Below the pieces are notes generated by a model. It was not told where the DNA came from. It did not search any database and was given only the letters and a program-made list of their open reading frames with translations. Positions 1,173 to 1,382 of a stretch of 32,000 bases of DNA are shown here, piece by piece (the first letter of the stretch is position 1; every line of letters begins with the position of its first letter). Both the position numbers and the translations under genes were made by a program. Origin of the DNA: Nostoc punctiforme PCC 73102 (GTDB lineage: Bacteria; Cyanobacteriota; Cyanobacteriia; Cyanobacteriales; Nostocaceae); the NCBI RefSeq assembly GCF_000020025.1, contig NC_010628.1, forward strand, positions 1,440,001 to 1,472,000, read 5' to 3'.

Positions 1173-1382
1173 GGGTCTGTAGCTCTAACGGTAGAGATCC
1201 CGGATGTCACTTGTGCCCTAATAGAAAAAGCTTACATACTTGCTCAATGGTAGAGCGATCGTATCTTAACGATAAGTGCAGGTTCAATTCCTGCGGTGTT
1301 ACCACAGCTTTTTCAACTCGCATGAGGTGTGAGTGTAACTCTCACAGGGAGGGTATCGGTTCAATCCCGATCAGATCCACTA
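1173..1382 (+). ncRNA. Composite tRNA-like RNA: alanine-type acceptor, D-arm and T-arm enclosing a Y-RNA-like module
   Basis: Acceptor GGGUCUG (1173-1179) pairs 7/7 with CAGAUCC (1372-1378), again with G3:U. It is followed by UA and a D-arm GCUC-UAACGGUA-GAGA (1182-1197). The T-arm AUCGG-UUCAAUC-CCGAU (1355-1371) directly abuts the acceptor 3' strand, with discriminator A1379 then CUA. UCCC (1198-1201) pairs with GGGA (1347-1350), closing a ~145-nt insert that holds module Y1 plus a hairpin GUGAG/CUCAC (1329-1345). Confidence 0.5.
1208..1329 (+). ncRNA. Y-RNA-like module Y1 (YrlA-type, internal tRNA-like domain)
   Basis: The conserved 5' strand uGUGCCCUAAUAGAAAAAGCUUACAUA pairs with the 3' strand AGCUUUUUCAACUCGCAUGAGG (GAAAAAGCU/AGCUUUUUC plus GUGC/GCAU). 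The interior has a D-arm GCUC-AAUGGUA-GAGC, an anticodon-like arm AUCGU-aucuua-ACGAU and a T-arm GCAGG-UUCAAUU-CCUGC. Ends are approximate. Confidence 0.6.

Follow-up and report, generated by a model that had tools for sequence, protein, structure and literature searches.

The stretch of DNA analysed here (hereafter the window) comprises 32,000 nucleotides (nt), i.e. 32 kilobases (kb), of contig NC_010628.1 of the cyanobacterium Nostoc punctiforme PCC 73102, from position 1,440,001 to 1,472,000, and all coordinates given below are positions in this window. The element of interest is a conserved composite RNA (1173-1382), in which a shell resembling a transfer RNA (tRNA) for alanine encloses, at the place of its anticodon arm, the stem of a Y-RNA-like module (Y1), and in which this module in turn bears a second tRNA-like domain. 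Both the element and the RNA operon to which it belongs lie on the + strand. In the window, the element heads an operon with three further Y-like modules (Y2-Y4), a small open reading frame (ORF) for a protein of 66 amino acids (aa), named ORF66, and the gene for a Ro60-like protein of 477 aa; at other loci it sits inside long tRNA arrays. The positions of these features are collected in Table 1.

Table 1. Positions of the parts of the composite RNA and of the other features of the operon in the window (bp, base pairs).
Feature	Position	Strand	Description
Promoter region	934..982	+	two TGTAGTAT (934-941, 975-982) flank a TTGACA-17-TACATT promoter-like site (946-974)
Mini transfer-messenger RNA (tmRNA)-like tRNA domain	1056..1139	+	84 nt, no mRNA part; acceptor GGGGCCG/CGGCUCC, G3:U70, A73, T-arm
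Whole composite RNA	1173..1382	+	tRNA-Ala-like shell, Y-like module Y1 and inner tRNA-like domain, through A1379, and CUA trailer
Acceptor stem, 5' strand	1173..1179	+	GGGUCUG; pairs 7/7 with 1372-1378; preceded by U(-1)
D-arm	1182..1197	+	GCUC-UAACGGUA-GAGA; G18 and G19 in the loop
Anticodon-like stem, 5' strand	1199..1201	+	CCC; pairs with 1347-1349; closes the three-way junction
Y1 stem, 5' strand	1209..1232	+	lower stem with GUGCCCUAAU motif, internal loop, upper stem AAAAAGCU
Inner tRNA-like domain	1233..1305	+	D-arm, 5-bp arm with 6-nt loop, T-arm
Y1 stem, 3' strand	1306..1328	+	AGCUUUUUCAACUCGCAUGAGGU; helices 4 and 5 of the 37-sequence alignment
Junction hairpin	1329..1345	+	GUGAG-UGUAACU-CUCAC, 5 bp, 7-nt loop; third branch of the three-way junction
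Anticodon-like stem, 3' strand	1347..1349	+	GGG; followed by the 5-nt variable region AGGGU
T-arm	1355..1371	+	AUCGG-UUCAAUC-CCGAU; abuts the acceptor 3' strand
Acceptor stem, 3' strand, and discriminator	1372..1379	+	CAGAUCC and A73 (A1379); CUA is next in the window
ORF66	1451..1651	+	66 aa (MVHIRFEG...AVYG); small beta-grasp-like protein; strong ribosome-binding site
Stand-alone Y-like module Y2	1658..1850	+	motif at 1666; two-part stem fold, z = -3.1
Stand-alone Y-like module Y3	1859..2021	+	motif at 1865; fold z = -4.2
240-aa ORF between Y3 and Y4	2145..2867	+	no Pfam, NCBIfam or PADLOC match
Stand-alone Y-like module Y4	2873..3000	+	tRNA-Phe(GAA)-like distal domain 2900-2972, 57.6 bits; fold z = -3.6
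Ro60/Rsr-like protein	3337..4770	+	477 aa; helical-repeat N-terminal part and VWA domain

A tRNA shell around a Y-type stem

The sequence from 1173 to 1382 reads GGGUCUG-UA-GCUC-UAACGGUA-GAGA-U-CCC..[145 nt]..GGG-AGGGU-AUCGG-UUCAAUC-CCGAU-CAGAUCC-A-CUA. Its outer parts have the layout of a tRNA cloverleaf, viz. a 7-bp acceptor, in which G3:U70 is one of the seven pairs, a 2-nt spacer (U8-A9) leading to the D-arm, and a T-arm with a loop of the form UUCRANY that directly abuts the acceptor 3' strand. The fully paired acceptor with its G3:U70, the UA spacer, the GG of the D-loop and the abutting T-arm had all been proposed in the initial annotation of this stretch, and they lie exactly where it placed them. 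The two determinants that make up the tRNA-Ala identity set, G3:U70 and A73, are both present. However, where a tRNA has a 5-bp anticodon stem with a 7-nt loop, the shell has a 3-bp stem and a 145-nt three-way junction, and there is no anticodon. After exchange of this insert for an arbitrary artificial loop of 7 nt, the shell was recognised by ARAGORN, at a relaxed score threshold (-ps90), as a tRNA with canonical geometry, which bears out the canonical tRNA spacing that had been claimed for it. Further, the acceptor pairing is retained in the unconstrained minimum-free-energy fold of 1173-1382 (-67.7 kcal/mol, against -54.4 +/- 4.6 for shuffled sequences; z = -2.9), and the check by unconstrained folding that the annotation had called for was thereby passed. 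The T-loop core GGTTCAAWYCC occurs four times (at 1115, 1281, 1358 and 2950), where 0.10 occurrences are expected and none of 100 shuffles reached four; the fourfold presence of this core within 1.9 kb is, as had been argued, above chance. It is also correct that the RNAs at 1056-1139 and 1173-1382 end alike, both having UCCACUA (UCCA followed by CUA) as their 3' end.

Three details of the earlier description need to be revised, one of them in the D-arm (position 14 and the 10:25 pair, given further below). The 145-nt insert had been taken to be closed by a helix of four pairs, UCCC/GGGA. The insert itself stands, but the closing helix is of 3 bp (positions 27-29 with 175-177): the proposed U26-A178 pair is not retained in homologs, in which position 26 is U, G or A opposite A, similar to the non-Watson-Crick 26:44 position of tRNAs. 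Likewise, Y1 is present in the insert as proposed, but the hairpin at 1329-1345, which had been labelled as variable-arm-like, is a branch of the junction inside the anticodon-like stem, the true variable region of the shell being the 5 nt AGGGU.

The Y-type nature of the insert is indicated by a comparison with the modules downstream. The motif GYGCCCUAAY is found four times in the window (1213, 1666, 1865 and 2880; 0.18 expected), and each copy starts a two-part helix, consisting of a lower stem, an internal loop and an upper stem AAAGCU/AGCUUU, by which a distal domain is closed. The insert thus has both stem and motif in common with the three downstream modules, all of them near the protein matching Ro60/Rsr, as would be expected from its description as Y-RNA-like. 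In BLAST comparisons, Y1 is paralogous to Y4-type modules of other genomes, with 70-80% identity over ~125 nt. The helices of Y2-Y4 are closed by each RNA's own ends, as holds for the Ro stem of bacterial Y RNAs, whereas the helix of Y1 is an internal branch, plugged into the shell via the three-way junction. All four modules lie <=2.2 kb upstream of the Ro60-like gene on the same strand; the end of the shell, also on the + strand, is 1955 nt from this gene, which is within the range typical of a bacterial Y RNA locus (~4 kb, same strand). A tRNA-like effector domain, another property of bacterial Y RNAs, is present twice, once as the shell and once as the inner domain. For the latter, ARAGORN reports a "tRNA-???" at 1232-1303 and the Rfam tRNA model scores 35.7 bits (gathering score 29) over model positions 10-63, in agreement with the second tRNA-like domain that had been placed at the distal end of Y1. 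Each of the three nested layers (shell, Y module and second tRNA-like domain) has therefore passed independent tests. The distal domains of Y2 and Y3 are 120-150 nt long and structured; they are not tRNA-like and match no Rfam family.

Conservation of the unit and its setting in tRNA arrays

The conservation of the element was examined in 80 genome loci fetched using the 477-aa protein as the handle (locus labels such as L078 are used below), and further loci came from exact-protein look-ups and from scanning metagenomes for the pattern. Of the 80 loci, 66 have the unit in full length, with 86-98% identity, and it occurs in several cyanobacterial orders. In an alignment with 120-nt flanks, the mean column identity rises from ~0.64 to 0.99 exactly at 1173 and drops from 0.96 to <=0.3 after 1382, and the conserved unit therefore coincides with the termini of the shell. 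The unit is unannotated on the Dolichospermum plasmid pAfl69, and neither the junction pattern nor the shell found a match in the viral contigs and phage collection searched.

Pairing was evaluated for the proposed structure of 55 pairs in an alignment of 37 sequences (A3), which includes both length classes of the element described below. In this alignment 97.4% of the cells are paired, as compared to 33-48% after a shift of the 3' partners by 1-3 columns, and 13 pairs change on both sides, among them 29:175, 49:65 and 157:173. The observed values of paired fraction, double-change counts and covariation score were not attained in any of 500 column shuffles, although related sequences can beat column shuffles and these counts should not be read as probabilities. 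The changes are distributed as follows: the anticodon-like pair 29:175 is C-G, U-G, G-C or U-A across homologs (L084 and L081 included), the T-stem pair 49:65 is A-U, G-U or G-C in a T-arm whose cells are 100% paired, the junction-hairpin pair 157:173 is G-C in 27 and A-U in 10 sequences, five pairs of the Y1 stem (helices 4 and 5) have changes on both sides, and covariation is present in helices 6-7 of the inner tRNA-like domain. Apart from 10:25, the three pairs of the D-arm are nearly invariant. The terminal features were counted in 67 distinct shells, where U(-1) is found in all 67, A73 in 65 and G3:U70 in 66 (the exception is A:U), while A73 is followed by CUA in 40 shells and directly by an encoded CCA in 4 homologs, which are among the 165-nt versions described below.

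In a number of non-Nostocales genomes, the Ro60-like locus is located 3'-terminally in an array of densely packed tRNA genes (up to ~20-30), many of which have an encoded CCA. Loci of this type are present in Leptolyngbya (L078, on a plasmid), Kovacikia (L082), Planktothrix (L081), Microcoleus (L084), Myxacorys (L077) and several metagenome contigs. In these arrays the shell is a 165-nt unit occupying an ordinary gene slot, with spacers of 3-8 nt; in L077, L078, L081 and L084 the array context is on the same strand, and the window, for its part, carries two copies of the array operator motif TGTAGTAT described below. The 165-nt versions keep the Y stem and the junction hairpin, and a small hairpin (CUUCCUGUUAAGAAG) replaces the inner tRNA-like domain, a 45-nt segment thus being exchanged for a dissimilar one. 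The same shell is kept in the minimum-free-energy fold of the short version in L078. Since the short versions lack the inner tRNA-like domain, the conserved core of the element consists of the tRNA shell and the Y stem, and the second tRNA-like domain, seen in Nostocales and a few Leptolyngbyaceae, appears to be an addition. Two broken shells were also noted, viz. L082:2591-2782 (Kovacikia), which lacks the 3' acceptor strand, and a metagenome copy, L092 (minus strand, first ~160 nt), in which ~30 nt holding a GCGATCGC motif are inserted in the T-arm.

These distributions bear on two other explanations of the conserved block. The list of open reading frames includes a frame of 61 aa with a TTG start at 1211-1396, whose protein product could be the reason for the conservation. 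However, single-nucleotide indels occur among the homologs inside this frame (alignment columns ~78, 100, 111 and 131), a 45-nt segment of it is swapped for a dissimilar hairpin in the short versions, and the conservation begins 38 nt upstream of the frame and tracks the paired columns. Based on the indels and the domain swap, this coding frame was rejected, its likelihood being practically nil. If, on the other hand, a mobile or duplicated Y module had interrupted a decaying tRNA-Ala pseudogene, then the two halves of the shell would be functionless relics. Broken copies of the shell do exist (L082 without its 3' acceptor strand, L092 with its T-arm insertion), L029 has two acceptor mismatches, and tRNA arrays are known to hold pseudogenes (PMC8421152). 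However, the shell halves form the most conserved columns (0.96-0.99), above both insert and flanks, the junction architecture is the same in Nostocales, Leptolyngbyales and Oscillatoriales, where the shell helices have undergone compensatory changes, U(-1) never varies, and CCA is encoded in some copies; hence an origin of this kind is regarded by us as highly improbable.

The probable ancestry of the shell is indicated by its neighbours in the arrays. The gene immediately before the shell (spacer 5-8 nt) in Leptolyngbya, Myxacorys and Planktothrix is intact, resembles tRNA-Ala(UGC) and shares the shell's 5' half (GGGUCUGUAGCU), and in L078 and several metagenome contigs the shell stands 3-4 nt before another tRNA-Ala(UGC) gene. 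A derivation of the shell from tRNA-Ala is supported by the sequence, because the intact neighbour shares its 5' half and because G3:U70 and A73 have been kept (66 and 65 of the 67 shells, respectively); the designation of the shell as alanine-type in the initial annotation is consistent with both observations. The upstream genes (L077:863-937, L078:2647-2723, L081:2568-2644 and L084:2971-3047) have the same acceptor 5' strand as the shell, and their 3' strand is CAGAAUCC, which implies a bulged A between positions 69 and 70, a feature conserved across genera.

One further nested RNA was found in Microcoleus sp. FACHB-1515, where a second, sequence-distinct tRNA shell with a Y stem (shell-B; L084:3051-3261) lies directly upstream of the usual one (shell-A). 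Shell-B has the acceptor GAGUUCG/CGAAUUC, encloses a Y-type stem together with a junction hairpin, and carries A73 and CCA, and its cloverleaf shell is kept in the minimum-free-energy fold. Three of its acceptor pairs differ from those of shell-A by compensatory changes, and G3:U70 is retained. BLAST searches with shell-B over the collected loci gave no homolog, so that it is a single instance in this set, and a strict scan for nested shells (7/7 acceptor pairs) gave only shell-A and one shell-B; a looser scan (6/7 acceptor pairs) was too noisy to use.

Operon context and proposed function

The protein encoded at 3337-4770 is treated here as a divergent Ro60-like protein, on the basis of a weak model. 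Of the architecture of Ro60/TROVE proteins, a HEAT-repeat ring followed by a VWA domain, Pfam finds only the VWA domain in it and does not detect TROVE, while in a phmmer search it is matched by Ro60 of Thermus phage phiLo (9l5y, 9kop; E = 4e-4). The AlphaFold model, computed from a shallow alignment, is of low confidence (predicted local distance difference test score, pLDDT, 60.6) and is all-helical up to about residue 285, then alpha/beta. With this low-confidence model, the ten best Foldseek matches are all Ro60/Rsr proteins (from human, Xenopus, D. radiodurans and phage phiLo; E = 3e-8 to 4e-6) with TM-scores of ~0.3, and the next match follows at 5e-3. The protein is 80-98% identical across many cyanobacterial orders.

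Upstream of the RNAs, the octamers TGTAGTAT on the two sides of the promoter-like site are the only matches to this motif in the window, and the site is located ~80 nt upstream of the first RNA. Both octamers sit within ATTTGTAGTAT direct repeats. Among 57 loci of the long type, 47 have TGTAGTAT at a distance of 50-430 nt upstream of the shell, and in many related loci a further copy was observed downstream of the Ro60-like gene. The same motif is the footprinted operator of TrcR that overlaps the -10 box of the trn (tRNA array) operon of Anabaena 7120 (PMC10272220). Further targets of repression by TrcR are rtcB and a gene for an HNH endonuclease, and its regulon is induced by translation inhibitors (PMC10272220, PMC8421152). 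From the presence of the motif we infer that the window operon is likely to be under TrcR control.

The first RNA behind this promoter is the mini tmRNA-like domain, which runs GGGGCCG...CGGCUCCA and lies 33 nt upstream of the shell. The Rfam tmRNA model gives it 46.6 bits, almost the gathering score of 47, with a body of 316 nt replaced by 24 nt; ARAGORN reports no tmRNA. The shell itself has only a 13.5-bit match to the permuted tmRNA among the Rfam tmRNA models, far below the gathering score. The mini domain is present in ~45 of the 80 loci, in versions of 84, 106 and 128 nt, and its copy in L083 shows a compensatory change in the acceptor (GGGGACG/CGUCUCC) and an encoded CCA.

ORF66, which follows the shell, raises the question whether the latter is a cis-acting, tRNA-mimicking leader that regulates ORF66 or the operon, e.g. 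by sensing a tRNA-binding factor or the state of the ribosome. The shell lies 70 nt upstream of this conserved ORF with its strong ribosome-binding site, and the operon looks stress-regulated. However, the spacer between them (1383-1420) is unconserved (identity 0-0.3), in array-type loci further tRNA-like genes lie between shell and ORF66, and the shell is found with tRNA genes on both sides as well; a role as leader is thus very unlikely. ORF66 comes directly after the shell in all 8 loci with inspected gene calls. It has 956 homologs, and its predicted fold (AlphaFold pLDDT 91.4) is of the type bb-a-bb, the protein ending in YG. The name "TGS domain" given to some homologs is a UniRef label that is not supported by the fold search, in which Foldseek gave insignificant beta-grasp matches only. 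ThiF (E1-like) genes are found near ORF66 in other genomes.

Based on these results, 1173-1379 is probably one stable non-coding RNA, viz. a Y-type RNA whose protein-binding stem has been grafted at the anticodon-stem position of a scaffold derived from tRNA-Ala. It would be transcribed from a promoter of the TrcR (translational-stress) type and released from the polycistronic transcript in the manner of a tRNA, by an RNase P cut after U(-1), after which its 3' end would be trimmed behind A73 and CCA added. Such processing by RNase P and RNase Z and the addition of CCA are indirectly supported, since CCA follows A73 in the sequence of four homologs, U(-1) shows no variation, and the limits of the conserved block are 1173 and 1382. 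The Ro60-like ring would bind the conserved GUGCCCUAA bulged stem of the Y module, and the shell would provide the particle with a tRNA handle having a free acceptor end. More speculatively, this end might be alanylated or bound by readers of CCA ends, and the Ro60 particle might in this way be coupled to tRNA- or ribosome-binding factors during translational stress. The element may thus belong to an RNA-protein particle of the stress response that is made, and perhaps used, via the tRNA machinery.

Several observations weigh against this interpretation and should be considered together. Concerning the shell, the D-loop has U in place of A at position 14, and 10:25, a G-A in the window, is G-U in 15, G-C in 11 and unpaired in 11 sequences of the 37-sequence alignment. 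The native shell is missed by the Rfam tRNA model, and by ARAGORN even with introns allowed and thresholds lowered. The acceptor (98.8% of cells paired) has no covariation support inside shell-A, its pairing there being supported by conservation and energy because it is almost invariant, and the homolog in L029 has two acceptor mismatches. As to the Y modules, the canonical bacterial Y-RNA motif GNCGAAN0-1G, or CGAA, is absent from them (GYGCCCUAAY is present instead), and a search of Rfam 15 over 800-3300 at E <= 10 gave no Y-type family, nor any other besides tRNA or tmRNA-type models; neither at the gathering scores nor at E <= 10 are the shell or the Y stems covered by any family. The Ro60 assignment depends on a low-confidence model: a search of PDB sequences with the family profile (hmmsearch) gave no match, and the call therefore rests on the weak phmmer match and the fold search with this model. 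In ~7 loci the Ro60-like gene and Y4-type modules are retained without any shell, and the shell is therefore not essential to the system. The alanine identity could be a mere inheritance from the ancestral tRNA-Ala gene.

The question of what the shell does also admits a more modest answer, namely that it is a scaffold for processing and stability alone, which excises the Y RNA from a tRNA-type polycistron and protects its ends, with no charging and no binding of tRNA factors. The location of the shell in tRNA arrays accords with this possibility, as does the loss of the encoded CCA in most Nostocales copies (CUA in 40 of 67), and the engineered tRNA scaffold, which has the same design and is processed and protected by cellular tRNA enzymes in bacteria (PMC3753655), gives it support. 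However, Y2-Y4 in the same operon manage without a shell, the conservation of the acceptor sequence, G3:U70 and A73 is far stricter than would be needed for processing alone, and G3:U70 survives in shell-B although other acceptor pairs have changed there. A pure scaffold is, for these reasons, a possible but rather unlikely explanation.

The retention of these positions can be seen in relation to the requirements of alanyl-tRNA synthetase (AlaRS), which recognises G3:U70 and A73 and ignores the anticodon. Because of this, alanine is among the few identities open to a tRNA without an anticodon, and alanylation of the acceptor end of the element, for which G3:U70 and A73 alone would be needed, is plausible. 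If account is taken of the fact that G3:U70 is kept in shell-A, shell-B and the mini tmRNA-like domain, then the acceptor end may be charged or read. A much bolder extension would make the shell a working alanine acceptor that is matured by RNase P and CCA addition, charged by AlaRS and bound by EF-Tu or by the co-encoded beta-grasp/TGS-like protein, so that the Ro60-like particle is delivered, similar to tmRNA, to stalled or damaged ribosomes under TrcR-controlled translational stress, with the mini tmRNA-like domain as the second member of the same family of anticodon-less alanine acceptors. We consider this extension doubtful, and clearly unlikely as it stands; if true, it would represent a new pathway of ribosome or tRNA surveillance that ties Ro60 to aminoacylation.

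Comparison with known RNAs and surrounding genes

To our knowledge, bacterial Y RNAs have so far always been closed, permuted tRNA mimics without an acceptor end. The RNA proposed here is most likely the unpermuted counterpart of one of these, the tRNA-mimicking Y RNA YrlA, which is bound by Rsr/Ro60 in bacteria (Chen et al. 2014, PMC4201824; structure preprint 10.1101/312249). YrlA is circularly permuted, with the order T, acceptor loop, D, and the ends of the RNA lie in the Ro stem; its acceptor stem is closed, without a free CCA. The YrlA of M. smegmatis can be cut by RNase P and receive CCA (PMC4201824; 10.1101/312249). The element shares with YrlA a modular construction from a Ro60-binding stem (putative in the element) and an L-shaped tRNA-like domain with D- and T-arms and an acceptor-type stem, the departure of the Ro/Y stem from the anticodon-stem position, and a same-strand position within a few kb of a downstream Ro60 or, here, Ro60-like gene, where multiple copies per locus are possible. 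However, unlike YrlA, the element has its ends at the acceptor, like a real tRNA, and its closed branch is the Y stem, which in the window bears a second tRNA-like domain; moreover, the element has G3:U70 and A73, it has GYGCCCUAAY in place of the GNCGAA motif, and its partner protein is too divergent for the detection of TROVE by Pfam. As both the CGAA motif and a stem formed by the RNA ends are missing, the element was not filed as a member of YrlA, and it is best described as a variant within the tRNA-mimicking kind of Y RNAs that is new in having unpermuted tRNA termini.

Among other known RNAs, Y2-Y4 and the inner part of Y1 follow the order of Yrn1 of D. radiodurans, viz. a terminal stem formed by the ends and, distally, a D-arm, an anticodon-like arm and a T-arm. 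Different from Yrn1, the terminal stem of Y1 does not arise from free RNA ends and is plugged into another tRNA-like molecule. With tmRNA (SsrA) the element shares a tRNA-like domain having G3:U70, A73 and CCA but no anticodon, a helix at the anticodon-stem position leading into a large functional body and, at its locus, the mini domain that lies almost at the Rfam tmRNA threshold 33 nt upstream. In contrast to tmRNA, it has no mRNA-like frame or tag, and the shell has a full D-arm.

The resemblance to the long tRNA arrays of cyanobacteria extends from the shell, which is an array unit in Leptolyngbya, Kovacikia, Planktothrix, Microcoleus and Myxacorys, to the operator motif TGTAGTAT at the window promoter, as in the Anabaena trn operon, and to the neighbours of the element loci, which match the RtcB and HNH genes co-regulated in the TrcR regulon. 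However, only tRNAs are described in the two array papers (PMC8421152, PMC10272220), and Y RNA, Ro60, tmRNA-like or vWA elements did not come up when PMC8421152 was searched for these terms. Unlike the long arrays, the array in the window has shrunk to two anticodon-less tRNA-like RNAs. In the literature searched, neither a Y RNA embedded in a tRNA, nor a Y RNA or Ro60 in cyanobacterial tRNA arrays, is described, and the statement of the initial annotation that no tRNA within a Y RNA within a tRNA had been described was likewise matched by this search.

The closest parallel in design is an artificial one. In the engineered tRNA scaffold (Ponchon and Dardel; PMC3753655), a hairpin-closed cargo takes the place of the anticodon stem-loop, and the acceptor, T- and D-arms stay. 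The design principle of the element is the same, the engineered chimera being processed and stabilised by the cell's tRNA enzymes; the element, however, is natural, conserved and tied to a specific protein partner. Nature, it appears, already uses the tRNA scaffold trick that was devised for recombinant RNA. The element thus matters as a Y RNA found in nature that has true tRNA ends and the identity elements of alanine, that is conserved among cyanobacterial orders, and that is embedded in tRNA arrays which spread horizontally and for which a role in translational stress was recognised only recently. Four subjects are linked by it in a testable form, viz. Ro60 particles, the processing and possibly the charging of tRNA, tRNA arrays, and the stress regulon of TrcR/RtcB, and the modelled protein points to a divergent Ro60 family that domain databases have overlooked. 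A set of conserved RNAs (the shell, 3-4 Y modules and the mini tmRNA-like domain) has in addition gone undetected by Rfam and ARAGORN and is unannotated in the record inspected.

As regards the other genes of the locus, searches of Pfam, NCBIfam and PADLOC with four small or unassigned-family ORFs gave only the VWA domain. The slot of the 240-aa ORF between Y3 and Y4 is occupied in other cyanobacteria by ORFs of 244, 187 or 151 aa, the last of which is a DUF6847 protein. Genes flanking the unit in other cyanobacteria encode RtcB, Tpt1 (RNA 2'-phosphotransferase), NADAR, RNase T, HNH and ThiF proteins, and judging from these assignments their theme appears to be RNA repair and conflict. In the window, a transposase fragment (DUF772 and a DDE tail; 77-679, +) is located immediately upstream of the RNA operon, which fits a mobile, plasmid-associated spread of the locus. 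Farther downstream, the window encodes an LRR-Roc-COR protein of 1185 aa with a C-terminal TIR domain (10968-14525, +), an architecture typical of conflict or defence systems. It also encodes a 1704-aa protein (21383-26497, -) that combines a glycosyltransferase, a TPS secretion domain and a C-terminal CHAT protease domain; this gene adjoins that of a ShlB/FhaC-type transporter (26671-28506, +), and the two form an unusual two-partner-secretion pair.

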